Shown here: positions 7,404 through 59,890 of the stretch, piece after piece
How the letters are laid out: every line of letters starts with the position of its first letter
Position numbering within the stretch: the stretch's first letter is position 1
Assembly (NCBI GenBank): GCA_013287705.1
Contig: JABDDH010000001.1
Span: 359 to 64,358 of the forward strand
Direction: 5' to 3'
DNA length: 64,000 nt
Source of the DNA: Chlamydiota bacterium
Lineage (GTDB): Bacteria > Chlamydiota > Chlamydiia > Chlamydiales > Rhabdochlamydiaceae
Position numbers and translations under genes: made by a program
Notes under the pieces: generated by a model
What the model was told of the DNA's origin: nothing
Database searches by the model: none
What the model saw: the letters and a program-made list of their open reading frames with translations, nothing else

Positions 7404-8666
7404 ATGAATAAAAAACGTATTGTCGTCACAGGAATGGGCCTTGTCTCTTGTTTTGGGAGTGATATCAATCACTTCTACCAGCAGCTTTTGGCTGGAAAGA
7501 GTGGAGTACGCCCTATTGCTGGATTTCCTTGTGAAGAATTTCCGACGCGCTTTGCAGCAGCGGTCGATCAGTTTAACCCAGATGGTTATCTAGATAAAAA
7601 ACAGGCGCGTCGCGTCGATCCTTTTATCTGCTATACTGTTGTTGCAGGCAAAAGAGCTTTAGAGATGGGCGGCCTGACTGGCGAGGCGTTTGATCGTCTA
7701 GATAAAGAGCGTTGTGGGATTTTAATTGGCTCTGGGATGGGTGGAATGAATGTTTTTTATGAAGGGGTTGAGACGCTGCTTCATAAGGGGCATAAGCGTC
7801 TGACGCCGTTTTTTGTTCCCTACATCATTACAAACATGGGCGGAGCGCTTCTAGGAATCGAGCTCGGTTTCCGCGGTCCTAACTACTCTATCTCTACTGC
7901 GTGTGCAACCGCTAACTACTGTATTGCAGCGGCTGCAAATCACATTCGCAACGGCCATGCCGATCTCATGTTATGCGGCGGTGCAGAGTCTGCGATCAAT
8001 CCGATTGGTCTTGCAGGTTTTGTTGCTATTAAGGCGCTTTCTGAGAGAAATGAGGCACCGGAACAGGCTTCACGTCCATGGGATCAGGCCCGAGATGGTT
8101 TTGTGATGGGAGAGGGGGCAGGAGTTCTTCTGCTCGAGAGTTTAGAGTCAGCTCTTGCGCGTGGCGCTCCGATCTATGCGGAGTATTTGGGTGGTGCAAT
8201 TAATTGCGACGCGCATCACATGACAGATCCACGGGCTGATGGGCTTGGCGTCAGTAGCTGTATTGAAGAGGCGATTAAGGATGCTGGCATTGATAAGAGT
8301 CAGATTAATTATATCAATGCGCATGCGACATCAACACCTGCTGGCGATCTGTGTGAGTTTCAGGCGCTGCAGAATGTTTTTGGAGAGGGGCTCTCTTCAA
8401 TTGCGATGAATGCTACAAAGTCGATGATTGGTCACTGTTTGGGTGCAGCTGGCGGTATTGAAGCGATTGCGACGGTTATGGCCATCCAAACAGGAATGCT
8501 TCACCCGACAATTAATAGTGAGAACCTTGAGCCTGCAGTTGCAGGTGTAAATATTGTTTCGAGCGTTGCCGCTCCCTGTCAGGTAAGAGCCGCGCTTTCT
8601 AATTCATTTGGATTTGGTGGTCATAACTCTTCTTTGATTTTTGCTCCTTACTTGAGTGCAGGATAG
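7404..8666 (+). CDS. fabF: 3-oxoacyl-[ACP] synthase II
   Basis: KRIVVTGMGLVS start, active-site region ISTACATANYCI, HATSTPAGD and GHCLGAAG motifs. ATG 7404 is preferred over the longer track ORF. The stop TAG (8664-8666) lies in the terminus of repeat A1. Confidence 0.93.
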   Translation: MNKKRIVVTGMGLVSCFGSDINHFYQQLLAGKSGVRPIAGFPCEEFPTRFAAAVDQFNPDGYLDKKQARRVDPFICYTVVAGKRALEMGGLTGEAFDRLDKERCGILIGSGMGGMNVFYEGVETLLHKGHKRLTPFFVPYIITNMGGALLGIELGFRGPNYSISTACATANYCIAAAANHIRNGHADLMLCGGAESAINPIGLAGFVAIKALSERNEAPEQASRPWDQARDGFVMGEGAGVLLLESLESALARGAPIYAEYLGGAINCDAHHMTDPRADGLGVSSCIEEAIKDAGIDKSQINYINAHATSTPAGDLCEFQALQNVFGEGLSSIAMNATKSMIGHCLGAAGGIEAIATVMAIQTGMLHPTINSENLEPAVAGVNIVSSVAAPCQVRAALSNSFGFGGHNSSLIFAPYLSAG

Positions 8667-8846
8667 ACCTCTTGCGTCAGTAGCTTTGCTTGAAAAATTC
8701 GGAGATTTTCTCTCGGATTTTTAGAAACTGCAAGCAGTTTCGTGTCGAGCGAAGGCGACGACTCCAGGGAGTCGACAACTGAGTAAGATAAAAAACTGCG
8801 AGAAAAGAACGAATTTAGCAAGTAAATGTAATGACGTAAGAGGTCT
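8664..8846. repeat. Family A long palindromic element, copy A1 (about 183 nt)
   Basis: Termini are tagacctcttgcgtca ... tgacgtaagaggtct (inverted). Internal arms are also complementary (attttctctcgg / cgagaaaag, gaaactgc / gcagtttc, cgactcc / ggagtcg). It aligns along its length with copies at 9341 and 10900 and fills the whole fabF-nudix spacer. Confidence 0.85.
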
Positions 8847-8847
8847 G

Positions 8848-9270
8848 ATGATCCTTCAAGATGAATCTTTTGGTGTAATTCCTTTAAAAAAAGAGAATTC
8901 TCTCTGGAAGGTTTTTTTAATTTTACACAAGTCAGGTCACCATTGGGGCTTTCCTAAGGGACATAAGAATATAAATGAGTCGTCACAAGAAGCGGCAGAG
9001 CGTGAACTAAAAGAAGAGACAGGGCTGCATGTTGTGGAATGGCTTTCAGAAAAACCTCTTGTAGAGACGTACCGGTTTCGGATTAAACAGCAGATGGTGC
9101 AAAAGCATGTCCTTTTTTTTCCGGCGCTTGTAGCGGGCGAACTTTTGTTGCAAGAAGAGGAAATTCGTGAAGGTAAGTGGGTGACCTTTGAAGAAGCCAC
9201 CGAGACTCTTACCTTTAAAGAGGCGAAATTACTGATCAAAGAAGTCTCTCAACTGTTGAATCTCTCTTAA
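8848..9270 (+). CDS. NUDIX hydrolase
   Basis: Nudix box GFPKGHKNINESSQEAAERELKEETGL (GX5EX7REUXEEXGU). Confidence 0.85.
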   Translation: MILQDESFGVIPLKKENSLWKVFLILHKSGHHWGFPKGHKNINESSQEAAERELKEETGLHVVEWLSEKPLVETYRFRIKQQMVQKHVLFFPALVAGELLLQEEEIREGKWVTFEEATETLTFKEAKLLIKEVSQLLNLS

Positions 9271-9554
9271 TAGACTTCTTTCGAAATTCGCTTTGTTTAG
9301 AAAAATTTGGCGCCGCAGATTCCAAAAAAGGCAATTTTAATAGACATCTTGCGCAACCTGCTTTGTTTGAAAAATTCGGAGATTTTCTCTCGGCTTTTTA
9401 GAAACAGCTTGGAGTTTCGCATCGCGCGAGGGAGCCGACTCTTCAGCGTCGGCAAGTGAGCAAGATAAAAAGCCGTGAGAAAAGAACGAATTTGGCAAAC
9501 AAATGAGGTTGCGCAAGAGGTCTAATAAACAAATGGAATTTTGAAAGAAGTCTA
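9271..9554. repeat. Composite repeat: a diverged family A-like element carrying a nested full copy (A2)
   Basis: The outer termini are tagacttctttcgaaattc (9271-9289) and gaattttgaaagaagtcta (9536-9554), inverted with 1 mismatch. The outer left arm resembles the family A left arm (gctttgtttagaaaaattt). A complete A copy lies inside. Confidence 0.7.
9341..9524. repeat. Family A long palindromic element, copy A2 (184 nt)
   Basis: tagacatcttgcgcaacct ... aggttgcgcaagaggtcta form a 19-nt inverted terminus with 1 mismatch. The internal sequence is colinear with A1. Confidence 0.85.
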
Positions 9555-9556
9555 TT

Positions 9557-10300
9557 ATGTCTAAACTTGATTATTTGAAACATTCTCTTCTCGGGATGCC
9601 GCCACAAATCGAGCTTTTTGTGCGCCATTGTCACTATTCAGCGATTAGTCAGCATAAAAATCGCTTGCCCGGTTTTGATCGTAAAAAATGTTATGAGAAT
9701 CTTCTTAAGACAGTGGATCTGAAACGTGTCCGCATCACATTTTTGCTCGACACCTTTCATCCTCTGGATCATGAGCACTTCATTATGCAGCAAAAGAAGT
9801 TTCCAGTTATTCAGACAAGACAGGGGAGCGAAACAGGATCTTTTCTTTTTTTACTCGACCACGTTATAGCCCAAAAATTTTACCCCGACACAATTATTTA
9901 CTTGCTTGAAGATGATTATCTGCATCGAGAAGGGTGGGTGGATGTTCTCTTAGAAGCGTTTGAGCTTCCAGTTGACTACGTGACGCTCTTTGATCATCGC
10001 GACAAGTACACAGCATCTAGCTATAAGGATTTACAAGCCCGGTTGTATCAGACACATTCTTGTCACTTTCGCACAACGCCATCGACAACAAACACATTTG
10101 CTGCGCGCTATAAGACATTGCAAAAAGATGCGCCGATTCATCGCGCCTATTCTGAAAATCGGACAATCACAGCCGATCATGAAAAATTTTGCCATTTACA
10201 ACGGGAGGGGGCGACTCTAATCTCCTCTATTCCAGGCTGGTCTACCCATGTAGAGCAGGAATTTACATCCCCCTGTTTTAGCTGGGAATCTCTTCTTTAA
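9557..10300 (+). CDS. Hypothetical protein, possibly a GT-A-fold nucleotide-sugar transferase-like enzyme
   Basis: 247-aa ORF. The EDDY (DxD-like) motif and the LFDHRDKY segment recall uncharacterised glycosyltransferase-like proteins. This assignment is from memory only. The gene is flanked by family A repeats. Confidence 0.35.
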   Translation: MSKLDYLKHSLLGMPPQIELFVRHCHYSAISQHKNRLPGFDRKKCYENLLKTVDLKRVRITFLLDTFHPLDHEHFIMQQKKFPVIQTRQGSETGSFLFLLDHVIAQKFYPDTIIYLLEDDYLHREGWVDVLLEAFELPVDYVTLFDHRDKYTASSYKDLQARLYQTHSCHFRTTPSTTNTFAARYKTLQKDAPIHRAYSENRTITADHEKFCHLQREGATLISSIPGWSTHVEQEFTSPCFSWESLL

Positions 10301-10608
10301 ACAATGCCTTTTCGCGCAGATTCAACGTCTTTTGCTTCTTTTGGCGCCTTTGTGGAAAACTGATGGTCGCCAGGTCTTGTCGTGTCAGTCTTGTTAAAGA
10401 CTGTTTCTGCGCGGTTGGTAAGAGAGTGGTTTGGGGCAGCTTTTGAAAATGTCGGGAGACCATTCACCCCATGAACGCTGGCATCTCTGATTAAAGGGAG
10501 TACTTTTTGAGTTAGTTTTTGGGCTTTAGCTTTAAGTTCAGCTTCGCTTGGGGTTTGTGTCTGTTGTGGGGCGTGAGTGTGCGTCTGTTGGGAAACTTTT
10601 TCTACCAT
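10297..10608 (-). CDS. Hypothetical low-complexity (Q/T/K-rich) protein, 103 aa
   Basis: A strong SD (aggagg) lies 5 nt upstream of the ATG (10614-10619 on the minus strand). No recognisable domain. Its stop overlaps the stop of the convergent 9557..10300 ORF in a TTAA. Confidence 0.45.
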   Translation of the reverse strand: MVEKVSQQTHTHAPQQTQTPSEAELKAKAQKLTQKVLPLIRDASVHGVNGLPTFSKAAPNHSLTNRAETVFNKTDTTRPGDHQFSTKAPKEAKDVESARKGIV

Positions 10609-10667
10609 AAGGACCTCCTAAAGTTAAGTTCATTATAAAGAGTCGCCAATTTTAGCAAATCTTTTAT

Positions 10668-10835
10668 TTACGGCTTGTCTAGATCGATTCTTGAAGCTTT
10701 TAATAGAGAGGGATTCGTTTCTGATTCCCTGTGAATTGTTTTACGAAAAATTTGAGCAAGGGAAGAGACCTCGTTTGAAAAGCTGACTCTTTTGACTCTC
10801 TCCTCTGATTCTCTTTTTTCTTTTTTCTTTTTCAT
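10668..10835 (-). CDS. Possible small ORF (55 aa, very basic N-terminus MKKKKEKRESEE...)
   Basis: I read it by eye because it is below the track cutoff. No convincing SD, so it may not be coding. Confidence 0.15.
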   Translation of the reverse strand: MKKKKEKRESEERVKRVSFSNEVSSLAQIFRKTIHRESETNPSLLKASRIDLDKP

Positions 10836-10899
10836 AGATACTATACGTATTCTATTTTGGGTATAATTGTCAATTGCGGTATAGTTGATTTTTTTACAA

Positions 10900-11018
10900 T
10901 AGACGTCTTGCGGAACCTGCTTTGTTTGAAAAATTCGAAGATTTTCTTAGCTGTTTTTAGAAACCGCTGACAGTTTCGTATTGCGCGAGGGCAAGTGAGC
11001 AAGATAAAAAGCTGCGAG
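10900..11018. repeat. Family A palindromic element, copy A3 (right end truncated, central sub-hairpin deleted)
   Basis: tagacgtcttgcggaacctgctttgtttgaaaaattcgaag... is colinear with A1/A2 as far as ...gataaaaagctgcgag. It ends 8 nt before the aas ATG. Confidence 0.8.
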
Positions 11019-11026
11019 TCGGAGTT

Positions 11027-13684
11027 ATGCTAAAGCAAAGGGTGCGCAAGGCGCTAGAGAGCCCCATTTTTTGGATTGCCAGGGCCGTCGCCTCTTTGCG
11101 CTATCGTCTTCACGTTACAGGGCTAGAGCATCTGACGCCGGAAACTTTAGCGCGTGGAGGGGGAACTCTTTTTTTGCCAAACCATCCAGCAGAGCTCGAT
11201 CCATGTCTTTTGCTGCTGGTTCTTTTCCCCCAATTTCGCCCAAGACCTTTAGTTGTCTCCCACTTTTTTTATCTCAAGGGAGTACGCTTTTTTATGGATC
11301 TGGTCCATGCGCTTCCTCTGCCCAATATGGATACATTTGCAAGTAGATGGAAGATCAAGCAGATGGATCTTCTTTTTACCACCGTCTCTTCCGCGTTAAA
11401 GAGAGGAGAAAATTTTTTGATTTATCCAGCCGGGAAGTTGAAGATGGGCGAAGCAGAGCGGGTGGGTGGATCCTCTTTTGTCCATAGTCTGCTCAAAGAG
11501 TGTCCCTCTGCAAATGTTGTTGTGGTGCGCACGACAGGTCTTTGGGGTAGCAGGTTTTCACGCGCGCTAACAGGAGAGGTCCCCAATTTTGGCAAGACAT
11601 TATGGGAAGGATTTAAAATTATTTGTAAAAATGGCTTTTTTTTTACTCCGCGCCGCCATGTTTATATCGATCTTTCTCCAGCGCCGAGCGATTTCCCTTT
11701 TTCTGGAACACGCCTAGAGTGCAATCAGTATTTAGAAAACTTTTATAACCGTTATCCGGATCGATTAAAACTTGTCTCATTCTATTTTTGGAAAGAGAAG
11801 TTCCCGTCTGTTGCGACAGAGGGAGAGGTGCATAAGTTTTTTGGAGAAGGTAAGGTGCCACAGAGCGTTGAAAAAGAGGTCTTTGCAAAACTCTCGGCAC
11901 TCTCGGGGCGTCCCGCGCCCCTAATTAATGCGCGCATGGAGCTCGCTTCAGACTTAGGTCTTGATTCTCTTGATCTCTCTGGGCTCTATATTTTTTTAGA
12001 GGAGAAGTATCATGTTGGGCAGCTGCAGCTGGGACAGCTCCGTTTTGTAGATGATCTATTGCAGATCGCGTCCGGCTACAAAAAGGGGATTGTTGTCTCA
12101 AATCAGCGAGAAAAGAGCTTTTCGTGGAAAGAAGAAAAAAACAGACCCTCTCCTCATATTGCAGATAGCCGAACATTACAAGAGGCTTTTTTACTCTCTT
12201 GCGAGCGGATGGGTTCTTTTACCGCGTGTGCCGATAGTAGTTCGGGGACCTTTTCGTATCGCACATTTAAAATGGCAGCGATCACTTTATCGCTCTATTT
12301 AAAAAAAGAGAAGAGCCCCTATATTGGCATTCTTCTCCCTGCATCTTGTGGCGCTTATCTCACAATTTTTGCCACTCTTCTTGCGCGCAAAACTCCTGTG
12401 ATGCTCAACTGGACAACGGGGGTGCGCTCTCTTGAGCATGCCCAATCTATCGCTCAATTTTCCTCTGTTATTACCTCTTGCCGTTTTTTAGAGCGCGTTG
12501 AAACAGCAGATTTTGGTGCTATAGAAAATTCGTTTCAATTTTTAGAAGAGATTAGCAGGAGTCTCTCTGTTTTTGAAAAAATCAAAGGTTTTTTCCTCTC
12601 TTTTTATTCGACAAAACAGCTGATGCGACGCTTGAGAGTAGAAGATCTACAAGCAGATGATCCGACCCTTATCCTTTTTACAAGCGGAACAGAATCGCTA
12701 CCAAAAGCTGTTCCTCTAACCCATCAGAACCTCTTGTCGAATTTGCGCTCAGCGCTTTCTTGTATTCCGCTCAGAGCGGATGATGTGTTGTATGGCGTTT
12801 TGCCTCCGTTTCACTCATTTGGTTTTTCTGTAACGGGAATTTTCCCTATACTCGCAGGTCTGAAAGTCTACTATGCCCCGGATCCAACAGATGCGTATCA
12901 AATGTCGCATGATATTCGCGAAGCTCACGTTACTTTGTTATGTCTGGCACCGAGTTTCATGCGCAGTCTGTTGCGCGTTGCAGATAAACGAGACTTATAT
13001 TCAGTTGCCTATTTTGTTGCAGGCGCTGAGAAAGCAGGCGTTGAGCTATACGATGCGATCAGACAACTTGGCAGTGGCAAGCGATTATTAGAAGGGTATG
13101 GAATTACAGAATGTTCACCCATTGTCACCTGGTCGCGGCTACATCTACCGGCAAAAGGTGTGGGGCAGCCCTTGCCTAACGTCGAACTTGCAATTCTTGA
13201 TACGGAATCTGGACAATTTTTACCAGTAGGCTCTGAGGGAGAAGTGTTGATTTGTGGGCCAAATGTCTTTAATGGCTATCTTGGCAAGACCCAAGACTCT
13301 TTCTTTGAGCATGAAGGCAAGAGATGGTACCGTTCTGGAGATCGAGGGCGTCTGGATCTCGACGGAAGTCTTATCCTTACAGGGAGGCTCAAGCGCTTTG
13401 TAAAAATTGGGGGAGAGATGATCTCTTTGTCCGGAATCGAAGAAGATCTGACACTTGGAATGGGTCAAGAGAAAACTTTTGCCCTCATCGCAAAAGAAGA
13501 TCTTGAAAAACCGCTTCTGATTCTTTTTTCTGAAATCCCCTTAAACAGAGAAGAGCTGAATCTCTTGTTAAGAGAGCGCGGCTATGGACAGATTATAAAA
13601 ATTTCTGAAGTGCGTACGTTGAGTGAGATCCCGCGCATGGCAACAGGAAAGATCAATTATCGACAACTGGAAGAACTATGCTAA
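11027..13684 (+). CDS. aas: Aas-type fusion: lysophospholipid acyltransferase, carrier-like segment and acyl-ACP/AMP-forming synthetase
   Basis: PlsC-type HX4D motif (NHPAELD) at the N-terminus, LGLDSLDL (phosphopantetheine-site-like) near aa 310, an AMP-binding motif LILFTSGTESLPKAV and a C-terminal GEMISL/ATGKI. Confidence 0.85.
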   Translation: MLKQRVRKALESPIFWIARAVASLRYRLHVTGLEHLTPETLARGGGTLFLPNHPAELDPCLLLLVLFPQFRPRPLVVSHFFYLKGVRFFMDLVHALPLPNMDTFASRWKIKQMDLLFTTVSSALKRGENFLIYPAGKLKMGEAERVGGSSFVHSLLKECPSANVVVVRTTGLWGSRFSRALTGEVPNFGKTLWEGFKIICKNGFFFTPRRHVYIDLSPAPSDFPFSGTRLECNQYLENFYNRYPDRLKLVSFYFWKEKFPSVATEGEVHKFFGEGKVPQSVEKEVFAKLSALSGRPAPLINARMELASDLGLDSLDLSGLYIFLEEKYHVGQLQLGQLRFVDDLLQIASGYKKGIVVSNQREKSFSWKEEKNRPSPHIADSRTLQEAFLLSCERMGSFTACADSSSGTFSYRTFKMAAITLSLYLKKEKSPYIGILLPASCGAYLTIFATLLARKTPVMLNWTTGVRSLEHAQSIAQFSSVITSCRFLERVETADFGAIENSFQFLEEISRSLSVFEKIKGFFLSFYSTKQLMRRLRVEDLQADDPTLILFTSGTESLPKAVPLTHQNLLSNLRSALSCIPLRADDVLYGVLPPFHSFGFSVTGIFPILAGLKVYYAPDPTDAYQMSHDIREAHVTLLCLAPSFMRSLLRVADKRDLYSVAYFVAGAEKAGVELYDAIRQLGSGKRLLEGYGITECSPIVTWSRLHLPAKGVGQPLPNVELAILDTESGQFLPVGSEGEVLICGPNVFNGYLGKTQDSFFEHEGKRWYRSGDRGRLDLDGSLILTGRLKRFVKIGGEMISLSGIEEDLTLGMGQEKTFALIAKEDLEKPLLILFSEIPLNREELNLLLRERGYGQIIKISEVRTLSEIPRMATGKINYRQLEELC

Positions 13685-15427: not shown

Positions 15428-15512
15428 CCGCGTTCTCGGTATTTTTCTTGGTCGATCCTCGTCGCTCGCGCTCCAAGGATCCACACAGAAAAACACCTCA
15501 TCCGCGGTTTTT
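15428..15512 (+). terminator. Long imperfect hairpin followed by TTTTT, a candidate intrinsic terminator of the aas-cysS operon
   Basis: ccgcg..ggtatttttcttgg..gatcct pairs with aggatc..ccacacagaaaaacacc..cgcgg, about 24 of 32 positions. It is followed by ttttt at 15508-15512 and lies in a convergent spacer. Confidence 0.4.
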
Positions 15513-22276: not shown

Positions 22277-22440
22277 TATACCCAAAAAACTTGAAAAATT
22301 GGGTCTCTATGGCGTCAGTTTTGTCTCACAATTTGTATTCTCACTCGCGCCTTGCCTTTCGGCAATGGTCGCTCCCTTCGAATTCACATTCTGAGCCACT
22401 TCCTTGCAGAGCTCCCAATTTTTCAAATTATTTGGGTATA
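22277..22440. repeat. Family B long palindromic element, copy B1 (164 nt)
   Basis: Arms tatacccaaaaaacttgaaaaattgggtctct (22277-22308) and agagctcccaatttttcaaattatttgggtata (22408-22440) are inverted. The core ctcgcgccttgcctttcggcaatggtc is shared with B2. It overlaps the 3' end of nrdR. Confidence 0.8.
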
Positions 22441-22867
22441 GTGCATCCATCAATTCATCGACATCCTTGAATCTGCGATAGACGCAGGCAAAGCGGATAT
22501 AGGCAATCATATCCAGTTCGCGCAGTTGCTTCATCACAATCTCTCCGAGGGTGACAGTTGGAATTTCACGCACCTGTGTTTCTAATAGATCAGCGCTGAT
22601 TTTATAAGCAAGGGATCTTACCTGGTCGTGAGAAATGCGGGTATGTCTACAGGCGGCCTCTAGACCTTTAATCAACTTTTCTTGTTGAAAGTCTTCGTAG
22701 GTGCCATCTCTTTTTTGGACTTGAATTGTCAGATCGACCATTTCAAAAGTGGTAAACCTGCGCAAACATTGAAGGCATTCTCTACGACGTCTAACAGCAT
22801 TAGCTTCTGCTGCATTGCGGGAATCTGTGACTTTCGACTCTTCAAAACTACAAAAAGGACAACGCAT
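22307..22867 (-). CDS. nrdR: Transcriptional repressor NrdR with a repeat-encoded C-terminal extension
   Basis: MRCPFCSFEESKVTDSR zinc ribbon and an ATP-cone ending ...YIRFACVYRRFKDVDELMDAL. The start is ATG 22865-22867; the track ORF reaching 22975 runs through tRNA-Ser. The last 43 codons lie inside repeat B1. Confidence 0.9.
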   Translation of the reverse strand: MRCPFCSFEESKVTDSRNAAEANAVRRRRECLQCLRRFTTFEMVDLTIQVQKRDGTYEDFQQEKLIKGLEAACRHTRISHDQVRSLAYKISADLLETQVREIPTVTLGEIVMKQLRELDMIAYIRFACVYRRFKDVDELMDALYPNNLKNWELCKEVAQNVNSKGATIAERQGASENTNCETKLTP

Positions 22868-22886
22868 ATAAATAGACTCTTTAAGA

Positions 22887-23411: not shown

Positions 23412-24966
<1,555 letters not shown>

Positions 24967-25443: not shown

Positions 25444-28396
<2,953 letters not shown>

Positions 28397-28570: not shown

Positions 28571-28689
28571 TTCTTGGTGGCTATAGAGAAGGGGGAATAC
28601 CTGATCCCATCCCGAACTCAGAAGTCAAGCCCTTCCTCGCCGATGGTACTATACTCAAGAGTATGGGAGAGTAGGTCGCCGCCAAGTAT
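28571..28689 (+). rRNA. rrf: 5S ribosomal RNA
   Basis: ttcttggtggc...cccgaactcagaagt...gagagtaggtcgccgccaagtat aligns end to end with E. coli 5S. Confidence 0.93.
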
Positions 28690-31753: not shown

Positions 31754-32173
31754 ATGCAACAGGAACAACAAGGTAGGACACGAGTTTCCATTACAGAAGC
31801 CGCAAGGATTAATGGCGTAACACGTCAGGCGATCTATGTAGCGATTAAGCAAGGAAAGTTAAAGGCTTCTAAAGACGAAGCGCGTTGGACAATTCATTTA
31901 GATGATTTAGAACTGTATCGCCGAGACAAGTATTCACGTACAAAGTCCATGTTTAATGGGGAACCTTTATTTGATAATATGAAAGGTTACTACTCTATCA
32001 ATCAGATCGCTAAAGTCTTGAATGTTCCACCACAAAAAATTTATTACGCAACACGTGTTGGTCTATTGAAAGCAATGCGCAAGGGTGCAGCTTGGGTAGT
32101 TCACATGGATGATGTGAAAGGTTATCAAGAGAACTATTTAAGTAAGCAGGTAGCTCCTTCTCAAGCGATTTAA
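31754..32173 (+). CDS. euo: Tandem excisionase-type HTH DNA-binding protein, EUO-like developmental regulator
   Basis: Two internal HTH repeats (VSITEAARINGVTRQAIYVAIKQGKLKA..WTIHLDDL and YSINQIAKVLNVPPQKIYYATRVGLLKA..WVVHMDDV). AGGAGG SD. It lies between tsp and recJ-secDF, as I recall for chlamydial euo. Confidence 0.7.
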   Translation: MQQEQQGRTRVSITEAARINGVTRQAIYVAIKQGKLKASKDEARWTIHLDDLELYRRDKYSRTKSMFNGEPLFDNMKGYYSINQIAKVLNVPPQKIYYATRVGLLKAMRKGAAWVVHMDDVKGYQENYLSKQVAPSQAI

Positions 32174-32238: not shown

Positions 32239-32399
32239 ATACCATTTGCAGAAAATAATTGCATATTTGACTATGTCAGCTTGGCAACAAATTTTTTGTC
32301 TTTGCTCGCGCCTTGCCTTATGGCAATGGTCACTTGCTCCAGCCAAAAAATTTGTGCCGCCTCCTTGTCAAATATGCAATTATTTCCTACAAATGGTAT
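32239..32399. repeat. Family B long palindromic element, copy B2 (161 nt)
   Basis: Arms ataccatttgcagaaaataattgcatatttgac and gtcaaatatgcaattatttcctacaaatggtat match at 31/33 as an inverted repeat. The inner arm is ggcaacaaatttttt / aaaaaatttgtgcc. The core ctcgcgccttgccttatggcaatggtc is shared with B1. It lies between convergent euo and recJ. Confidence 0.85.
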
Positions 32400-34143: not shown

Positions 34144-34293
34144 GATGAGCGCTCCTTATCTTATTCTCGAATTATAGCGAGGGTGGTTCAAAAATCGGTT
34201 TTTTGAACCACCTCTGGTATGTTTTGGATCCTAGCAGGACGCTCGCTCTTTGTCATCAAATAAAGATGCGACAATTGTGCGATTCGACTCCAC

Positions 34294-34474
34294 CTAGTAC
34301 CCGAACACATTAGTTTTTGTGGGTAATTTTGGCGTCAAAACCCGCACAATCGACGATCGTAAATTGCTTCGTATTAAATTAATACGGAGCAATTTATGAA
34401 GCCTGCGGTCGATCGATTCTGCGGAGCTTTCACGTTCAAAATTACCCACAAAAACTAATGTGTTCGGGTACTAG
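34294..34474. repeat. Palindromic element D (181 nt; 37-bp perfect terminal inverted repeat)
   Basis: 34294-34330 ctagtacccgaacacattagtttttgtgggtaatttt is the exact reverse complement of 34438-34474. The interior is also self-complementary (ccgcacaatcgacgatcg / cgatcgattctgcgg; aaattgcttcgtattaa / ttaatacggagcaattt). The secDF stop TAG is the terminal CTAG. Confidence 0.9.
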
Positions 34475-39214: not shown

Positions 39215-39514
39215 ATGCCAAGTTTAATTGCCGTTGGAATTCAGTGGGGGGATGAGGGGAAAGGTAAGGTCGTTGATCTGCTTTCTAAAAACGCCCAACA
39301 TGTTATTCGCTCCCAGGCGTATACAACGCGAGTGGGAAATGGACCTTTTCCTACCGAACTTGGCTCATCAGAGCTCTCCTCTTTTTTAGATCATACTCAG
39401 GCGCGTGCTTATTTAGAGAGGGTTCAGGAGCTTTGTGGAGCTCCCATTAGTCTCATTTCTCTTGGTCCAGAGCGTGAAAAAACAATTTTTTTAAGACAAT
39501 TTTTTAAACGATGA
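39215..39514 (+). pseudogene. purA: Adenylosuccinate synthetase (purA) relic, an in-frame mini-ORF of 99 aa
   Basis: It retains the PurA N-terminus ([16 protein letters not shown]), a mid-segment ([15 protein letters not shown]) and the C-terminus ([29 protein letters not shown]). About 330 aa of intervening sequence, including catalytic regions, is missing. The stop overlaps the uppS ATG (ATGA). Confidence 0.8.
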
Positions 39515-40266: not shown

Positions 40267-40267
40267 A

Positions 40268-42988: not shown

Positions 42989-43064
42989 CTAGTACTCAGT
43001 CAATATTGAAATTGCAGCTTTCGCGCTAGCACAATCCGCAATTTCAATGTTGACTGAGCACTAG
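42989..43064. repeat. Palindromic element E (76 nt), with CTAGTAC termini like element D
   Basis: ctagtactcagtcaatattgaaattgc (42989-43015) and gcaatttcaatgttgactgagcactag (43038-43064) match at 25/27 as an inverted repeat. The stop TAG of the minus-strand transporter gene is the terminal CTAG. Confidence 0.8.
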
Positions 43065-45253
43065 TCTACCCAGTGTAAGACGTTGCGCAGGATGGAGAAG
43101 CGGGGTTCTTTAGATGCTGACTTTTCGATTTTGCCAAGTAACCACATATCATACTGTTTTTGTGTAAAGCCTTCTGTTTTTTTAAGCGCAAGCCACTGAT
43201 TGACAAACTGCACGAGACGTGTCGCGTCTTGTCGCATCGGATAACCGAAAGTTCCAGATCCCATTGCAGGAGTGGGTAAAACCACTGTGTAACTCGGATA
43301 TTGGATGGACCAGGCAATTCCTTCTGATTGCGCCCAAAGAAGGGCGTCAGCCCCGGAATTCGTGAAGGATTCATAGTCTTTAAGTGGAATAATTGTCTGA
43401 TGTGGCAGTAGCATCTTGGCGAGGGACTCAAAAGAGCTCCCTTCTAATACAGCAATTCTTAGAGAAGGATTTTTTTCGACAAGCGAAAGCGAGTTGAAAT
43501 GCTTTCTCTGTTTGTCGAGTGTGACAAAGACGAGCGGTTCTTGCAAATAGCTCTCTGAAAAGTTCATGAGTTGCAGATCTTTTTCATTAATGGGAACCCC
43601 TGACATGCCAATATCAAAAAGGTAATTGTTGAGACCTTCAGCGATCTTGTCATACTGCATCGGAATGAGCTCAAGGGTGCATCCCAGGTCGTGTGCAAGC
43701 TCTATGGCAAAGGCGATGTCATAACCGACAATCTCTTGCTTCTCATTATAAAAACAGAAGGGGATGGCGTTGCAGTTGTAGCCGACGCGTAAGATGCGCG
43801 TTCTCAGAATGCGCTCAAAACTGCTCTCTCCTGGGAGAGGGACAACGGCTGAAGGCGGAGTATTGTAGATGCGAATGGAAGAAGATTCAGGGAGAGAGAG
43901 GGTATAAATAGTCTCTGTTTGATTGATAATTTGAGGAAGGGGGAGCCAAGACTTTAATATGTAGACGGCAAGAAGTAGGGGAGCGATAATCACTAAGAGA
44001 TTACGCAAACAGCTTTTCCAATTTAGCCGAACAAGGCCCCTGTAGGCAAAGGTGATGCATAAAGAGACGGCGCTGATTTCAGTTGCAGAGATGAGAGATT
44101 GAAAGCCTGAAGTAAAAGGGAGTGTGGTCATGTAGAGTTGAATTGTCTCTAGAGGGAGCCCCAGTGCTTCTGTTAAAAAAGAGAGGGTGTTGATCCACGA
44201 GCCAAGGCCGACAGCGCCAAGGCTTGTTAAAAAAGTTGTAAAAACGAGCTCTACTCGTTCCATTGAAGTGAAGGGAACGGAGTAAAAAGAGGCTGCAAAT
44301 AAGATAAAAGCGACAGTGAAAAGAGATCCGAGGGGAAGATTGAAGACGAGGGAGACAACACCCTGGATTTGATTGTTTGGCTGCGTCTCATTGGGATAAA
44401 AGGAGATGAGGGAGCGTTTGATCATTTCAATCATATAAGGCAGGGAGACGATCACAAGGTTAGTTGTGTAGGCTAAAAGAAGGATGGGGAGCATCTCTTT
44501 GATCCACTTCCCCGCGTTTAATGACGTGAGCATGCTGATTAGACGAGGGAAGATCCAAAAGACGATGGAAAGAGCCGCTAGGATGTATAGAATAATGTAC
44601 GCGCTCATTTGTTTGATTGTGTCTAGATTAATTGTCCCTACTTGATAGGAGATAATGATAAATGTTCCAAGAGGGGTGATGCGGGAGATCCAGCTTGTGA
44701 TGCGGGTCAGCCCGGAAAGTAATGTTTCGAGGCCTGACATGAGGGCGCTTTTTTCTTTGAGCTGCATGAGGGCAAGGCCAATGAGGATAGAAAAGATGAC
44801 AACCGCCGGCAGAGTGTTGTTTGATAGTGCAGAGAAGATGTTTTCTGGAATTAATAAGCCTGCAAAATTCAGATGAGACTGCTCTAGTGACGTGTAGGCG
44901 CCTTGTGATCCACCGGAAGATTCTGGCAGGAGCATTTCGATAAGAAAGATGAGGATGAGGTTGATTGTCCAGGCAAGGCAGATGAAGAAGCTGCCTTTTT
45001 TTAAGATTTGGACGGCTTGAGAGCTCTCTAGTTGCCCAAGCCCATGGATTAGAGCGCAGATCAGGTAGGGTACTGTCGTGATTTTAACAATCATGATGTA
45101 CGCTTCGCAGAAAGGGTTAAGGCTTGTGCAGAGATCCCCAAATAAGAGGCCAATAAAGATACCAAAGCAGGTAGCTAGTAACATCTGAAGGGGAAGCGAG
45201 AATTTAAAAGGATTTATTTTATAGAGGAAATTGCTGTTGTCTGAGTGCTTCAT
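43061..45253 (-). CDS. Fusion protein: divergent dicarboxylate/amino-acid:cation symporter (DAACS)-like membrane domain, an extra TM helix and a family-3 solute-binding domain
   Basis: The N-terminal 410 aa or so is multi-TM with a GltP-like layout (LQMLLATCFGIFIGLLFG..., ...SLGAVGLGSWINTLSFLTEALGLPLETIQLYM...), but I did not find the canonical NMDGT-type motif. A TM helix follows (NLLVIIAPLLLAVYIL). The C-terminus looks like SBP_bac_3 (LRVGYNCNAIPFCFYNEKQEIVGYDIAFAIELAHDLG...DIGMSGV). Confidence 0.65.
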   Translation of the reverse strand: MKHSDNSNFLYKINPFKFSLPLQMLLATCFGIFIGLLFGDLCTSLNPFCEAYIMIVKITTVPYLICALIHGLGQLESSQAVQILKKGSFFICLAWTINLILIFLIEMLLPESSGGSQGAYTSLEQSHLNFAGLLIPENIFSALSNNTLPAVVIFSILIGLALMQLKEKSALMSGLETLLSGLTRITSWISRITPLGTFIIISYQVGTINLDTIKQMSAYIILYILAALSIVFWIFPRLISMLTSLNAGKWIKEMLPILLLAYTTNLVIVSLPYMIEMIKRSLISFYPNETQPNNQIQGVVSLVFNLPLGSLFTVAFILFAASFYSVPFTSMERVELVFTTFLTSLGAVGLGSWINTLSFLTEALGLPLETIQLYMTTLPFTSGFQSLISATEISAVSLCITFAYRGLVRLNWKSCLRNLLVIIAPLLLAVYILKSWLPLPQIINQTETIYTLSLPESSSIRIYNTPPSAVVPLPGESSFERILRTRILRVGYNCNAIPFCFYNEKQEIVGYDIAFAIELAHDLGCTLELIPMQYDKIAEGLNNYLFDIGMSGVPINEKDLQLMNFSESYLQEPLVFVTLDKQRKHFNSLSLVEKNPSLRIAVLEGSSFESLAKMLLPHQTIIPLKDYESFTNSGADALLWAQSEGIAWSIQYPSYTVVLPTPAMGSGTFGYPMRQDATRLVQFVNQWLALKKTEGFTQKQYDMWLLGKIEKSASKEPRFSILRNVLHWVD

Positions 45254-55433: not shown

Positions 55434-55507
55434 AGGACTCCTCTTTGGCTAATGTCTATTTTTAACCTAATCGATTTCAATAGGCTTGTCAACTTTATTA
55501 TTAAAAT

Positions 55508-56779
55508 ATGAAAATAAAACTTCTTTTCCCCCTCTTTCTTTTTGGTTTTTATTGTATTAATATTGAGGCGCTTGCGCCAAACCTTGGCGCTAAAAGTGCT
55601 ATTTTAATCAATGCCCAGACGGGAGTTGTCTTGTATGAGAAGAGAGCACATGACCCCGCTTTTCCTGCCAGTACAACAAAGATCGCAACAGCCATTTACT
55701 CTATAGAGAAGATGCAAGGTAGGCTTGATGAAATAGTGTGCGCGCAGCCAGATGCCATGGCGCAGCGTTCGTCTAAGAGCGGGGATCTGCCGTATCGGTT
55801 AACGCGCGACAGCTCGCTTATGGGGTTAAAGTTAGGGGAGGAATTGCCGTTTCGTGTGCTCCTCTATGGGCTTATGCTCTGTTCTGGTAATGATGCAGGA
55901 AATGTGATTGCGCACCACCTTTCAGGGAGCATTCCTCGGTTTATGGACGAGTTGAATCAGTACCTTCGTTCTAAAGGGCTCAAAGAGACACAATTTTATA
56001 ACCCTCATGGGTATCACTATCCAGAGCATGTGACAACAGCTTATGACCTTGCTAAAATCACCCAGTACGCCTTAAAAAACCCTCTTTTTTCTGAGATTGT
56101 TAAGACAATCCGTTATCCGCGGCCAGAGACGGCTCATAATCCTAGCTGGCAGATGGTGCAATCGAATAAACTCTTAAAGCCAGGGGCATTTTACTATCCT
56201 TACGCAATTGGCGTGAAAACGGGGTTCCATACCCCTGGCGGAGCAAATCTTGTAGCTGCAGCTGAAAAAAATGGGAGAAAGTTAATTGCGGTTCTCCTCG
56301 GCAACCCCGATAAGGATCGACGCTTTCGTGATGCCATTGCTCTTTTTGAGGAAGCCTTTGCTGAAAAAAAAGTTGATCGCAAGCTTTTCAGTAAAGGAGC
56401 TGACTCTTTTTCTTATCACTTAAAAGATGCAGCCTTCCCTATAGAGGCAAGACTTAAAAGTGACCTTGTCGTCTGCTACTACCCTTCTGAGGAGCCACAG
56501 TTGAAAGCGCGTCTTTTGTGGGACAAATGTTTGTTGCCGATTCAGGAAGAGAGTCCGGTCGGTAGCATCGAGATTGTAACTGAAGAAGGAGTTGTCGTTT
56601 GTAGAGAGCGGTTATTTGCTTTCAAAGACGTTGAAAGAACCCGTATGGCACAGATTCTATTTTTGTATCAGAGCTATAAGCGTCAGCTCTTTTTTGGCTT
56701 TGGAGGGCTGCTGATTGTTGGAGGGATTCTTTTTAGCGCACAAGCCAGCCGCAAGAAGTCATCAAAACCTAAATCTTGA
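55508..56779 (+). CDS. dacC: D-alanyl-D-alanine carboxypeptidase (S11, PBP5/6-like) with a C-terminal membrane anchor
   Basis: SxxK (PASTTKIAT), SxN (CSGNDAG) and KTG (VKTGFH) motifs, plus a C-terminal TM helix (FFGFGGLLIVGGILF). Confidence 0.88.
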   Translation: MKIKLLFPLFLFGFYCINIEALAPNLGAKSAILINAQTGVVLYEKRAHDPAFPASTTKIATAIYSIEKMQGRLDEIVCAQPDAMAQRSSKSGDLPYRLTRDSSLMGLKLGEELPFRVLLYGLMLCSGNDAGNVIAHHLSGSIPRFMDELNQYLRSKGLKETQFYNPHGYHYPEHVTTAYDLAKITQYALKNPLFSEIVKTIRYPRPETAHNPSWQMVQSNKLLKPGAFYYPYAIGVKTGFHTPGGANLVAAAEKNGRKLIAVLLGNPDKDRRFRDAIALFEEAFAEKKVDRKLFSKGADSFSYHLKDAAFPIEARLKSDLVVCYYPSEEPQLKARLLWDKCLLPIQEESPVGSIEIVTEEGVVVCRERLFAFKDVERTRMAQILFLYQSYKRQLFFGFGGLLIVGGILFSAQASRKKSSKPKS

Positions 56780-57561
56780 GGGCGCATTGTGGACGAGATC
56801 CCGGAAAGAGTGCAGGCAGCTTCAATCTCTTCCGAGGTTCGAATTTGTTTTAAGCCAACCCGGATCATCTTGCGCCTTTGCCCAAAAGCTGATCTTGTAA
56901 CTGCAAAAAAATCCTCAGGAGGTAGTTCAGGTGGTTTTTTAAGACGAATCTGGACGACAGCAGAATGGACTCCGGGGACAGGGAAGAATGAGGTCGGTTT
57001 AACCTTGAAGAAGGAGATCGGCTCTGCATAATAGCGCAAAAAGAGGGTAAGAGAGCTGTAGTCTTTGGATCCTTTTTCTGCAAAGAGGCGCAGGGCGACT
57101 TCGTATTGGACCATGAGCGTCAGTGTCTGGATCTCTTCATATAGAGGAAGAAGCTTAATTAAAATAGGTGTTGTAATCTGATAGGGAAGGTTCGCAACAA
57201 CTTTTATTTTTTGTTTGTGTTTAGGCAAGAAGCTTGAAGTGTCACAATCTAAAATGTCGCCTTGGATTACTTTGAGGCGTGCATCTTCTGTTTGAAGGCG
57301 CTCTAAGCTCGTGGCAAAGAGGGGGTCTTTTTCAACAGCCATCAGCTGCGCCCCATAGCGAAGGATCCTCTCAGAGAGGGCTCCAGGTCCAGATCCTATT
57401 TCGACGATGGCATCTCTCGGCCCCACTTCTGCGAGGGAGCAAATTTTATCTAGAATGTTGCCGTCGATGAGAAAGTTTTGGGATAACGACTTCTTTGCTC
57501 GCACGCCGAGCTCGGAGAGAAAGGCGTGGAGTGCTGAGGGTTTAAAGAGGTCTGAGGTCAA
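56683..57561 (-). CDS. rsmA: 16S rRNA (adenine1518/1519-N6)-dimethyltransferase
   Basis: KKSLSQNFLID, VEIGSGPGALS and NLPYQITTPIL motifs. A C-terminal tail of about 15 aa overlaps the 3' end of dacC. Confidence 0.9.
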   Translation of the reverse strand: MTSDLFKPSALHAFLSELGVRAKKSLSQNFLIDGNILDKICSLAEVGPRDAIVEIGSGPGALSERILRYGAQLMAVEKDPLFATSLERLQTEDARLKVIQGDILDCDTSSFLPKHKQKIKVVANLPYQITTPILIKLLPLYEEIQTLTLMVQYEVALRLFAEKGSKDYSSLTLFLRYYAEPISFFKVKPTSFFPVPGVHSAVVQIRLKKPPELPPEDFFAVTRSAFGQRRKMIRVGLKQIRTSEEIEAACTLSGISSTMRPQDLGFDDFLRLACALKRIPPTISSPPKPKKS

Positions 57562-58592
57562 TACGATAGACTAAAGGGTTCAAAGTTTTTGGGGATCATC
57601 TCTTCAAGGCTCTTATCGGTAATTCCATTGCGTGCGCGCAATTTTGGAATGTAGTTAAGAGACTGTTTTTGAATCGCCTTTTCAATCAGTTCGTCTTCTA
57701 GTTTAGCGCACATTTCTCGAAATGTTGCAGGCTTTTTTTCATTCTCTTCTTTGAGGTGAAAAATACGATAGACAATACTTTGGTCGCGACTCTTCTGAGG
57801 AATTGGCCCGCTATATTCACCCTCTTTGAGTGTGAGGAGTACCTCTTTATGAGCCTCAGAGATTGTGGTCTCATTAGATTCAAACTCTTGGGATAGGGAG
57901 ACGGTGGCTATATGGTCTTTTGTTTCGTGTTTTAGAGTCTCCGCAACGGCTACAAGACCCGTACGTGCTGTCTCTAGAAGCTGGGTTGCTTTTTCTGCCA
58001 GGTGTAATCCAATAGACGGATTATTTGCGCGCAGAGAAAGAACTTGATATTTCCACTCTTTAATCGCTGGATTTTCTTTACAATAAGCGAGATAAGCATT
58101 TTTTACATCTTGTGGATTAACGCTCTGCAGTGCATGGCCATTGACTCGATACCAGGTCATCTGCTGAACGATGAGTTCATTGCGAATCATTTCTCTCGCT
58201 TCATCTAAGGATAATCCGATTTTTTCTAAATTGACAAGGACATGAGGTCCAAAGCGTTCTTGTATCATGCTGCGGATATCGCTCTCTTGAAGTTTCATCT
58301 CTTTATCGGCAGAGTCTGCGACAATCAAGACTGAATCAACCATTTGAGAGAGGAAATAGCGCCAATTTGTCATGTAGAAAGAGTAGCGCTCTTGGGGTTG
58401 ATCCAACATTTGAGGGTAGTTCCGACTAATAAACATGTCCATCTGTTTCATGACATCAAGAACAGAAAAAGCCTTATCATCGACTTTTGCAACAATGCGG
58501 TTTTGAACAACAATCTGAGGATCGGCTTGTTCAAAAGCCGATAGAGGGGATAGAGCTAGTAGTGTTAAAAAAAAGCGACAAACTGTTTTCAT
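57558..58592 (-). CDS. SurA-N-domain-like periplasmic chaperone
   Basis: ATG 58592 has a GGAG SD and a signal peptide (MKTVCRFFLTLLALSPLSA). IVAKVDDKAFSVLDV resembles a SurA N-terminal domain. I recognise no clear parvulin motif. Confidence 0.55.
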   Translation of the reverse strand: MKTVCRFFLTLLALSPLSAFEQADPQIVVQNRIVAKVDDKAFSVLDVMKQMDMFISRNYPQMLDQPQERYSFYMTNWRYFLSQMVDSVLIVADSADKEMKLQESDIRSMIQERFGPHVLVNLEKIGLSLDEAREMIRNELIVQQMTWYRVNGHALQSVNPQDVKNAYLAYCKENPAIKEWKYQVLSLRANNPSIGLHLAEKATQLLETARTGLVAVAETLKHETKDHIATVSLSQEFESNETTISEAHKEVLLTLKEGEYSGPIPQKSRDQSIVYRIFHLKEENEKKPATFREMCAKLEDELIEKAIQKQSLNYIPKLRARNGITDKSLEEMIPKNFEPFSLSY

Positions 58593-58620
58593 ATAATTTC
58601 TCCGCTCCCCAGTATATATA

Positions 58621-59736
58621 TTAGATTCTTTTGAGTACAGCGCCGAAAAAGCCATCCATGCCTCTCTCTGTGGGAATGGATTGAAATGGTTCTTTAACAA
58701 GAGACAAGGAAAATTTTTCTTGGAAATAGGCAGTCTGTTCCTGATTTTCTTGAGGCAGTAAGCTGCATGTTGCGTAGATAATTGTCCCTTTTTGTTTTAA
58801 AAAAGAGAGCGCCTCTTCGAAGATCCGCCGCTGTTCTTCAATCAGGTTAGGAAGAGCTTCTTTGTTAAATTTCCATTTCATATCAGGATTGCGCCGCAAT
58901 GTGCCAGAACCCGTACACGGGACATCGACAAAGACCCAGTCCATTTTTCCGCGCAGCCGCTTTTTTTTCGGGTCATCATAGTGAAGAAGTTGGCAATTTT
59001 GAACGCCGGCTCTGCGTAGCCTTTTTTTTGCTTCTTCCAGCGCTCTTGGACGGATGTCGTGGAGATAGATTTGGCCGCCTCGCGTCTGTGGAGCAAAGGC
59101 AAGGGTTTTGCCTCCGGCGCCTGCGCAGAAATCTAAAATTTGGTCTCCCTCTTTTGGTTCGAGTAGATTTGCAACTAGCTGACTTGCTTCATCTTGAACT
59201 TCAAAAAGACCTTCTTTAAACTCATCCATAGCAAAAAAATTGGCTCTTTTCTCTAGGTGGATTCCTGTAGGAGATAGGTGGCAGGCTTGCGCCCCATAAA
59301 CTCCCTTCCACAAAGCAAGAAGAGCTTCTCGATCTGTTTTGAGCTCGTTTGCGCGGAGTGTGAGTGGAGCCTGAGTGTTGCTGACTCTGCAGATCTCAAG
59401 AGCTTGTTCCTCGGGATACGCCGTAGTTAACAGTTCAAATAATTGCTTGGGGAAGCTGACGCGAATATGTGGAGGAACCCGGTCTAAGGGATAATCAGAG
59501 AGGTTAAGGTAAACTTGAAGCCTGCTCTCCCAAGAGACGGGTTTTGTAGCTAAATGATCGATGAGGCCGCGCATGCGGACCATTCCATAGACTGTTTCGC
59601 TAATCCAGCGCCGGTCTTGTGCTCCAACTGATTTGTGTGTCCGGAAGTAGTGGCTTAAAAAAAGATCTAGAGGCCCTTTGTGAGTCTCAAAAAGGGTGAA
59701 AATTGCGACGAGATGGTGTGTGCGAAATGGATTCAT
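58621..59736 (-). CDS. rsmB: 16S rRNA m5C methyltransferase (RsmB/Sun family)
   Basis: DFCAGAGGKT, VDVPCTGSGTLRRNPD and IIYATCSLLPQEN motifs. Confidence 0.88.
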   Translation of the reverse strand: MNPFRTHHLVAIFTLFETHKGPLDLFLSHYFRTHKSVGAQDRRWISETVYGMVRMRGLIDHLATKPVSWESRLQVYLNLSDYPLDRVPPHIRVSFPKQLFELLTTAYPEEQALEICRVSNTQAPLTLRANELKTDREALLALWKGVYGAQACHLSPTGIHLEKRANFFAMDEFKEGLFEVQDEASQLVANLLEPKEGDQILDFCAGAGGKTLAFAPQTRGGQIYLHDIRPRALEEAKKRLRRAGVQNCQLLHYDDPKKKRLRGKMDWVFVDVPCTGSGTLRRNPDMKWKFNKEALPNLIEEQRRIFEEALSFLKQKGTIIYATCSLLPQENQEQTAYFQEKFSLSLVKEPFQSIPTERGMDGFFGAVLKRI

Positions 59737-59746
59737 TCGGGTAGTA

Positions 59747-59890
59747 TCTCGACTTTGTAACTTTTTGGGACCGAAGGCCTCGAGATATTTGTTCTTGGCT
59801 TAGAAAATAAATCAGCGAGTTTGGCCATAGGCCAAACGGCCAAGAGCAAATAGACGAGGCAGGCGGTCCCAAAAAGTTGCAAAGTCGAGA
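59747..59890. repeat. Family C long palindromic element, copy C2 (144 nt)
   Basis: Arms tctcgactttgtaactttttgggaccg (59747-59773) and cggtcccaaaaagttgcaaagtcgaga (59864-59890) match at 26/27 as an inverted repeat. Inner arms are aggcctcgagatatttgttcttggc / gccaagagcaaatagacgaggc. The tip is gtttggcc-ata-ggccaaac. It lies in the divergent rsmB-doxX spacer. Confidence 0.88.

Follow-up and report, generated by a model that had tools for sequence, protein, structure and literature searches.

Hairpin elements of several families in the spacers of a Chlamydiota core region are probably MITE-like transposons

A 64,000-nucleotide stretch of contig JABDDH010000001.1, referred to here as the window, comes from an uncultured Chlamydiota bacterium and spans a core region dense in genes; the spacers between these genes carry long imperfect palindromes that fold into hairpins. 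These hairpins are probably non-autonomous DNA transposons of several related families, similar to miniature inverted-repeat transposable elements (MITEs); the probability attached to this reading is about 0.72. They are dispersed repeats rather than local duplications or known RNAs, and they make up apparently undescribed families of an already familiar element type, in which core and arms are combined in an unusual, modular way. Classical Chlamydia genomes are almost free of repeats (PMC2878342), and for environmental chlamydiae what has been published on repeats is limited to transposase genes and to sequences longer than 200 bp (PMC2878342, PMC9723776). No description of such hairpin elements was found in the searchable literature on Chlamydiae and no Rfam family matches them, in agreement with an earlier note on this DNA, which could place them in no known family.

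That note had listed long palindromes across the window, and an inverted-repeat scan returned the same elements as its top-scoring matches at essentially the same coordinates, where they fold to near-complete hairpins (Table 1). Within the spacers of at least 60 nt, eleven hairpin elements cover 1,659 of 4,689 nt, close to the ~1.6 kb at which their total had been put, and 11 of 19 such spacers are occupied. The elements measure 60–190 nt, with a nested composite of up to 290 nt; full-length copies are 160–185 nt in all families, palindromic nearly end to end, with a short asymmetric core set between two long inverted arms. The arms are 27–49 nt long and 81–100% complementary in the window and reach 80 nt in related loci, giving stems of 27–80 bp with ~40–47% G+C. 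Families are told apart by their ends (AGACC.., TATACCC.., TACCAT.., CTAGTAC.. and CTCGAC..; the end sequences are also given as AGACCTCTTGCG, TACCATTT, TATACCC and CTAGTAC). No open reading frame (ORF) lies inside any element of the window. All copies there are intergenic, touching genes only at start or stop codons, and they occur in divergent, convergent and tandem spacers alike. The colinearity claimed for members of each family breaks down for B1 and B2, which have an apex of ~30 nt in common and different termini (TATACCC.. and TACCATTT.., respectively); the ends of B1 are instead common to an element in locus L002. Of the supposed long palindromes, A3 is a truncated copy without a hairpin, and C1, which had been assigned to family C, is C-like at its ends only.

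Dispersal was judged from related genomes and metagenome loci (L numbers), the source genome being represented by the window. Several cases concern genes that overlap where no element is present. For instance, the window has A1 between fabF and the neighboring NUDIX gene, two genes that share an ATGA overlap in L002, L129 and L130 and are separated by 18 nt in L004; when A1 and one copy of its GAT flank are removed, the junction reads GGATGATCC, which restores the same overlapping stop and start codons. The NUDIX gene and the next gene overlap or are separated by 4 nt in relatives, and A2 stands between them in the window. The reciprocal situation is also found: L066, which is syntenic with the window at 6–10 kb, is empty at the fabF/NUDIX junction and has an A-type element between nadD and rsfS, genes that overlap in the window, while a B1-type element lies beside fabF in L002 and not in the window. 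Elements split formerly overlapping genes with both reading frames preserved. The first bases of A1 complete a new fabF stop codon (TAG, 8664-8666), the terminal CTAG of D supplies the stop codon of secDF, and that of E is the stop codon of a transporter gene (43061..45253, minus strand). Among the loci compared, a search for pairs of empty and filled genomic sites returned within-element cases only.

Copies also insert into one another, as in the window, where A2 inner sits inside the shorter A2 outer. In L014, a 159-nt hairpin of another family is found inside a TATACCC element with a 4–6-bp duplication at the site, and the uninterrupted form of this TATACCC element is present in L028. Truncated copies comprise A3 and several metagenome copies, and C3 corresponds to C2 shortened by an internal deletion; a weaker inverted repeat around C3 reaches 59734-59903. 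Short forms of 48–100 nt could have been empty target hairpins awaiting insertion of a core; this was rejected, because in alignments they are long forms from which internal sequence has been deleted.

Copies of the families turn up at unrelated loci in many related genomes, and the loci examined come from relatives of the window organism. In L002, the nearest relative (71% identity in the NUDIX protein), a 164-nt hairpin has the 27-nt ends of B1 at a different locus and around a different interior, and still folds. The termini of B1 match more than 50 elements in metagenome loci, and the TATACCC terminus was found in at least 118 contigs of the metagenome scan. Among the 80 TATACCC matches listed, at least 18 come from one sample (Ga0153915). 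The matching contigs contain ~58 elements with both arms, which form a 160–180-nt class and shorter classes, and ~12 of the matches are due to chance and lie in A/T-rich contigs that are unrelated. Many arms stop at the end of a contig, which is expected because repeats break assemblies. A generic hairpin search of the TATACCC loci gave ~200 hairpins, and the same loci carry the ends of A (TAGACCTCTTGCG), B2 (TACCATTT), C (CTCGACTTTG) and D/E (CTAGTA) together with further terminus types such as TATACCACGCG. The more distant L129 and L130, chlamydial genomes of 2.1–2.3 Mb, hold 173–183-nt hairpins ending in TAACCC or TTAACCC. A 21-mer from the family-A core had six matches in species-representative genomes, a set without the source genome, which is chance level; the sole chlamydial match is in coding DNA and forms no hairpin. 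Viral contigs scanned with the A and TATACCC termini gave single-arm chance matches only and no hairpins.

Insertion is further indicated by short direct repeats at the borders of two families. With family A defined as AGACC..GGTCT and B2 as TACCAT..ATGGTA, the observed flanks were compared with left and right flanks that had been randomly re-paired. Identical 3-bp flanks of the form ANT border 7 of 11 family-A copies (3.1 expected, p=0.009), namely AGT, ATT twice, AAT three times and GAT. In family B2 the repeats are TWA (TAA four times, TTA twice) and border six of seven copies, again with 3.1 expected (p=0.03); the combined permutation p for A and B2 is 0.00045. No conserved flank motif or duplication was found outside TATAC..GTATA in the TATACCC family.

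The hairpins are more stable than shuffled sequence and have been maintained by compensatory change. Folding energies were compared with 100 dinucleotide shuffles per element; the eleven hairpins gave z from -5 to -19 and the full-length elements z from -7 to -19, against a mean of -0.2 and a minimum of -2.2 in 30 coding controls. A stringent hairpin finder returned seven hairpins in the window versus a mean of 0.03 per shuffled window (30 shuffles). A2 inner and A1 are 79% identical, with the differences in their arms compensated so that each is self-complementary. The folding and covariation analysis that the earlier note had proposed was made on 27 full-length TATACCC elements from many samples, whose consensus hairpin has 70 pairs. 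Across the 27 copies 96.2% of cells are paired, and both-sided changes occur at 30 of the 70 pairs, compared with 17.4 +/- 2.0 in shuffles, none of 500 of which reached 30. The covariation score is 0.273 and falls to 0.04–0.05 when the pairing is slid by 1–3 columns.

Taken as MITE-like transposons, the elements show the expected features: they are shorter than ~500 bp and without coding capacity, bear terminal inverted repeats and exist as dispersed copies with insertion polymorphism, and families A and B2 add target duplications. They would be moved by cut-and-paste through a DDE-type transposase acting in trans and encoded elsewhere in the genome, which would cut at short targets rich in A/T (ANT and TWA, possibly also TATA and CTAG). 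Propagation would be open only to copies whose complementary arms are intact, so that lineages would come to differ by paired compensatory changes. Copies decay by truncation and by internal deletion, the latter giving the short forms. Several elements lie inside operons and one in the rRNA spacer; these must therefore be transcribed as long hairpins and are likely substrates of RNase III. Copies at unrelated loci, reciprocal presence and absence, nesting and 3-bp duplications together support the proposal that the elements are dispersed and non-autonomous, of the MITE, Correia or palindromic-element type.

Several observations weigh against this reading. Neither the window nor ~0.8 Mb of related loci yielded an autonomous element or transposase gene that shares the ends of the hairpins, and no ORF recurs beside the elements in those loci as a candidate mobilizer; the recurring proteins belong to the ordinary chlamydial set (an ATPase, an outer-membrane protein and a Pmp-like autotransporter). 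The only transposase between element arms, in L053, belongs to a unit whose true ends differ from those of the element. In the flank repeats of A and B2 the outer two positions are nearly invariant, and the signal comes mainly from the middle base. The candidate duplications of TATACCC elements (TATA or TA) and of CTAGTAC elements (CTAG) read as palindromes and are thus inseparable from the inverted repeat. Finally, textbook MITEs have conserved ends and a free interior, the opposite of a conserved core whose arms can be exchanged.

An example of this last point lies upstream of recJ. L045 is syntenic with the window at 29–42 kb (66% amino-acid identity in RecJ, 52% in SecDF) and has a TATACCC element (L045:2099-2274) 143 nt upstream of recJ, where the window has D at a distance of 151 nt. 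The two elements have a ~100-nt core that is ~85% identical and in the same orientation, their 38-nt arms are unrelated, and the spacer DNA around them is unalignable. The 105-nt core of D matches element interiors in 19 loci and is common to the 176-nt TATACCC elements of Ga0153915 and to elements with other arms. Independent insertions at a favored site or replacement of the arms could account for the pattern, which is not explained by a simple MITE model. A more far-reaching interpretation, which is rather unlikely, is that the elements form a modular hairpin superfamily specific to Chlamydiota, in which a ~100-nt asymmetric core combines with many unrelated, self-complementary arm pairs of ~38 nt, the full-length hairpin is the unit that is kept at a total length of 160–185 nt, and the mechanism of mobilization or arm renewal would be one not described for bacterial MITEs. 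Such elements might pass through a DNA intermediate in hairpin form, with one arm serving as the template for the other, or be handled by a ruler-like enzyme that recognizes the core; either way the enzyme would come from an unannotated family. The window and L045 also both have a hairpin just past the recJ stop codon. Between recJ and D lies another short hairpin (34182-34217, GAGGGTGGTTCAAAAATCGGTTTTTTGAACCACCTC), which resembles the subterminal CTGAAAAATCGGTTTTTCAG of TATACCC-type arms and may be an arm remnant.

Another alternative links the elements to repetitive extragenic palindromic (REP) elements and their paired forms (REPINs), or to palindrome-associated transposable elements (PATEs). 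The hairpins would then be single-strand DNA substrates of an HUH transposase of the Y1 type, either a REP-associated tyrosine transposase (RAYT) or an IS200/IS605-type enzyme, which is encoded elsewhere as a single-copy gene and makes no target duplication. The elements do share with REPINs a long hairpin of two inverted halves, high copy number, maintained hairpin integrity and a mobilizer that would be encoded elsewhere, and the full-length, often perfect complementarity kept by compensatory change, the lack of flank repeats outside TATAC..GTATA and the failure to find a DDE partner all fit. Y1_Tnp genes with GTAG-tagged REP hairpins do exist in metagenomic contigs bearing a DDE insertion sequence (IS) family, although the hairpins of that unit are unrelated. 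HUH transposition makes no 3-bp direct repeats of the kind that flank A and B2. The ends of the chlamydial elements read TAGAC, TATAC, TACCAT, CTAGTAC and CTCGAC, whereas REP sequences are defined by a 20–40-nt palindrome with a tetranucleotide, GTAG or CGTC, conserved at its foot (PMC3733652). The ends lack this tag, and no Y1/RAYT gene (Y1_Tnp, PF01797) was found among the window genes or near the copies. The earlier note had reported no transposase, RAYT or integrase in the window, and Pfam agrees: all window genes were scanned, with precomputed results used for the first 15, and housekeeping functions were returned. A REP-like origin, which that note had entertained, is unlikely on these grounds.

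A further candidate for the source of mobility is an IS found in L053. Here a 520-amino-acid ORF lies exactly between two family-A arms of 63–80 nt (95% identical), and ATT is present on both outer flanks. ORFs bounded by element ends 0.6–5 kb apart were nearly always located between separate elements, and L053 is the one true case. The protein has no Pfam match and only a marginal NCBIfam match. It has at least 5,909 homologues, nearly all ~508 amino acids long, on contigs of 1.7–2.5 kb and annotated as hypothetical; named sources are Rhabdochlamydiaceae and Parachlamydiaceae, and clustering at 50% leaves 2,619 representatives. A profile of diverse members matches the structure of a Mutator/IS256-family transposase (6xg8, E=1.4e-4), 11 of 24 members match DDE_Tnp_ISL3 and 7 of 24 match Transposase_mut, and residues D166, E167, D221, D242 and E448 are invariant. 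From these profile matches and invariant residues, the L053 protein is a DDE transposase of an unannotated IS family, distantly ISL3/IS256-like and very abundant in Chlamydiota.

The hairpins might accordingly be derivatives of this IS, made of its two long terminal repeats joined together and moved by its transposase. The arrangement in L053, with the whole unit flanked by ATT, and the huge size of a DDE-like protein family found on repeat-sized contigs speak for such a relationship. However, the IS is ~1.75 kb long, encodes one DDE transposase of ~508 amino acids and has ends of its own (GGCMTGGTTCAA..GGTAACAC): ten copies of variant P0166 and further copies of another variant are alike only inward of these ends, and their flanks differ. 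The closest relative of the L053 transposase (89% identical), in L157, lies in an A-like hairpin arm with its own 8-bp duplication (CAAAAATC), and another copy is in the loop of a degenerate hairpin. The IS end motif has four matches in the window elements where 9.3 are expected by chance, and tblastn found no remnant of the transposase in the window. Because its true ends differ, L157 has its own duplication and the window elements lack the end motif, the simplest reading is that the IS inserts into hairpins: it appears to be an inserter and not a parent, and it probably targets them for motifs of the AAAATC type. As the parent of the hairpins the IS was rejected, and an origin of the elements from it is less likely still than one through an HUH enzyme.

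In the IS variant with the P0203 gene (L137-L146, e.g. L142:100-1000), a Y1_Tnp gene of the RAYT/IS200-like type is nested upstream and bracketed by inverted, GTAG-tagged, REP-like hairpins, and in L138 the Y1_Tnp segment is inverted between the same repeats. This composite unit appears to be multi-copy because the right-hand IS flanks differ among loci. In L131, a related metagenome contig, a gene for a 510-amino-acid Cas12f1-like/TnpB protein (PF07282; L131:1253-2785) adjoins a DDE IS copy.

The hairpins might instead be conserved for a function in RNA, as RNase III sites, mRNA stabilizers or regulators, an idea that the earlier note had raised as a mobile structured-RNA module. Covariation along the whole stem is strong, elements occur inside operons and in the 16S-23S spacer, and upstream of recJ the core is conserved at ~85% in two genomes with otherwise unalignable intergenic DNA. 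Other observations speak against such a function. Elements between genes of the same direction run along the gene orientation in 10 cases and against it in eight, and all three spacer types are used. Of 32 copies, 19 fold better as the aligned strand than as the complement, with a mean difference of ~1 kcal/mol that favors the complement, and G-U pairs are not enriched on either strand. Orthologous sites differ in whether an element is present. Rfam 15 run on the window identified rRNAs and tRNAs only at threshold, and relaxing to E<=0.5 adds two meaningless hairpin matches. Intrinsic terminators combine a short, G+C-rich stem with a T-run directly behind it; the stems of the elements lack such a run, and elements also stand in divergent spacers, so they are not intrinsic terminators. 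Because the hairpin is tied to neither strand nor transcription, we infer that the covariation reflects selection on element propagation, in which only lineages with matching arms spread, and not RNA function. The evidence argues for the cut-and-paste behavior of a MITE at the DNA level, and a selected RNA module is improbable.

That the palindromes were made in place by local duplication or template switching and are immobile, for which the confinement of all window family-A copies to 2.4 kb and similar clusters in L053 and L064 might be quoted, is the least credible proposal, given the same families at unrelated loci in many genomes and copies with defined ends and flanking duplications. The clustering itself (four A copies at 8662-11018 in the window, and several A-type copies within 1–3 kb at L053:9923-12978 and at L064:5999-6734 and 11526-11695) suggests short-range hopping or preferred insertion beside or into existing copies.

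In behavior the chlamydial elements seem to resemble most closely the Tourist-like MITEs, with their TWA duplications, and in overall look the Rickettsia palindromic elements (RPEs) and the enterobacterial repetitive intergenic consensus (ERIC) sequences, also called intergenic repeat units (IRUs). The IS5-family/PIF-Harbinger transposons and Tourist-like MITEs make 3-bp TNA/TWA duplications. Like members of this group, the chlamydial elements are small, lack ORFs, have terminal inverted repeats and exist in many dispersed copies with nested insertions, and B2 has TWA duplications while other families use A/T-rich targets of 3–4 bp. They differ in that no IS5-like parent or transposase is seen, in being palindromic over their whole length and not at the ends only, in the ANT rather than TNA duplication of family A, and in their host, an obligate intracellular bacterial phylum. 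RPE and ERIC/IRU are imperfect palindromes of 100–180 nt with no known transposase, several families, frequent co-transcription and size variants that arise by indels; RPEs also insert in frame into genes and have an obligate intracellular host. Dispersed, often co-transcribed imperfect palindromes of several families, indel size variants and the lack of a known transposase are common to these and the chlamydial elements, as is, for RPE, the obligate intracellular bacterial host. Unlike RPEs, the chlamydial copies are all intergenic and only start and stop codons are touched, and unlike both RPE and ERIC they have 3-bp flanking duplications; the comparison is one of described properties, and no sequence relationship is evident.

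The Correia elements (CREE) of Neisseria are ~100–155 nt long, duplicate TA and have terminal repeats of ~26 bp around a defined interior. They too are inverted-repeat spacer elements that are co-transcribed and lack a transposase of their own, and they are RNase III substrates, as is likely for the chlamydial elements. In the latter, however, A and B2 duplicate 3 bp, the arms pair over 38–80 nt and the sequences are unrelated.

Short elements without a transposase make up a third of the spacer DNA of this core region, where they split overlapping genes, donate stop codons, sit in the rRNA operon and break metagenome assemblies, and an abundant unannotated IS uses them as landing sites. A catalogue of the elements would help the annotation and assembly of chlamydial metagenome-assembled genomes (MAGs) and provide markers for strain typing and the dating of insertions. 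The mobilizing enzyme, if identified, would give a phylum with few genetic tools a native transposon system.

Table 1. Hairpin elements of the window and the insertion sequence of L053. Positions refer to the window unless a locus is named; z is the folding z-score.
Feature	Position	Strand	Description	Setting and flanks	z
A1	8665..8846	none	Full-length family A (AGACC..GGTCT), 182 nt	Between fabF and NUDIX gene; GAT flanks at 8662-8664 and 8847-8849	-10.0
A2 outer	9272..9553	none	Short family A (~100 nt), split by A2 inner	From NUDIX stop codon to next gene start; flanks AAT and ATT	-10.7
A2 inner	9342..9523	none	Full-length family A	Nested in A2 outer; AAT on both sides	-10.2
A3	10898..11018	+	Truncated family A (left arm and apical fragment); no hairpin	Upstream of acyltransferase/AMP-binding gene starting at 11027	+0.5
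H	15428..15507	none	G+C-rich 80-nt hairpin, outside the element families	Between convergent genes	-4.9
B1	22277..22440	none	TATACCCAAA..TTTGGGTATA family (TATACCC.. ends), 164 nt	Between dksA and tRNA-Ser	-7.0
C1	23027..23088	none	Short hairpin with C-like ends CTCGACTTT..AAAGTCGAG	Between tRNA-Ser and 16S rRNA gene	-5.1
C2	25108..25287	none	180-nt family-C hairpin	Inside 16S-23S spacer (16S end 24966, 23S start 25444)	-11.5
B2	32240..32398	none	TACCATTT..AAATGGTA family, 159 nt	5 nt past recJ stop codon; TAA on both sides	-10.8
D	34294..34474	none	181 nt; perfect 38-nt arms bounded by CTAG; core 34332-34436 (105 nt)		-18.9
E	42989..43064	none	76-nt hairpin; CTAGTAC.. ends like D		-9.6
C3	59747..59890	none	Family C	Between two divergent genes; GTA on both sides	-16.2
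DDE IS copy	L053:11173-12912		ORF 11244-12806; homologues P0121-P0390	Loci L131-L158	

The genes around the elements are chlamydial in character. For the NUDIX protein, whose gene stands between two elements, the best named relatives come from MAGs of Rhabdochlamydiaceae and Simkania, and the first gene of the window encodes a MurC-Ddl fusion, as in syntenic relatives. An rRNA operon (16S 23412-24966, 23S 25444-28396, 5S 28573-28687) and two tRNAs are also present, and the Joint Genome Institute (JGI) metagenome 3300020866 holds an 11.5-kb contig identical to window DNA. No close copy of C1 was found elsewhere in the metagenome loci searched, and H had no relatives in any data searched. Between B1 and tRNA-Ser, ~440 nt (22441-22884) are without a convincing gene, the only long ORF overlapping the tRNA, and gave no RNA family or repeat match. 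Directly upstream of B2 and convergent on recJ, a gene at 31754-32173 encodes a 139-amino-acid protein with two HTH_17 (excisionase/MerR-like) DNA-binding domains. Lastly, a 99-amino-acid ORF between secDF and uppS (39215-39514) aligns with adenylosuccinate synthetase (profile length 416) in three separate stretches and looks like a decayed remnant of purA.

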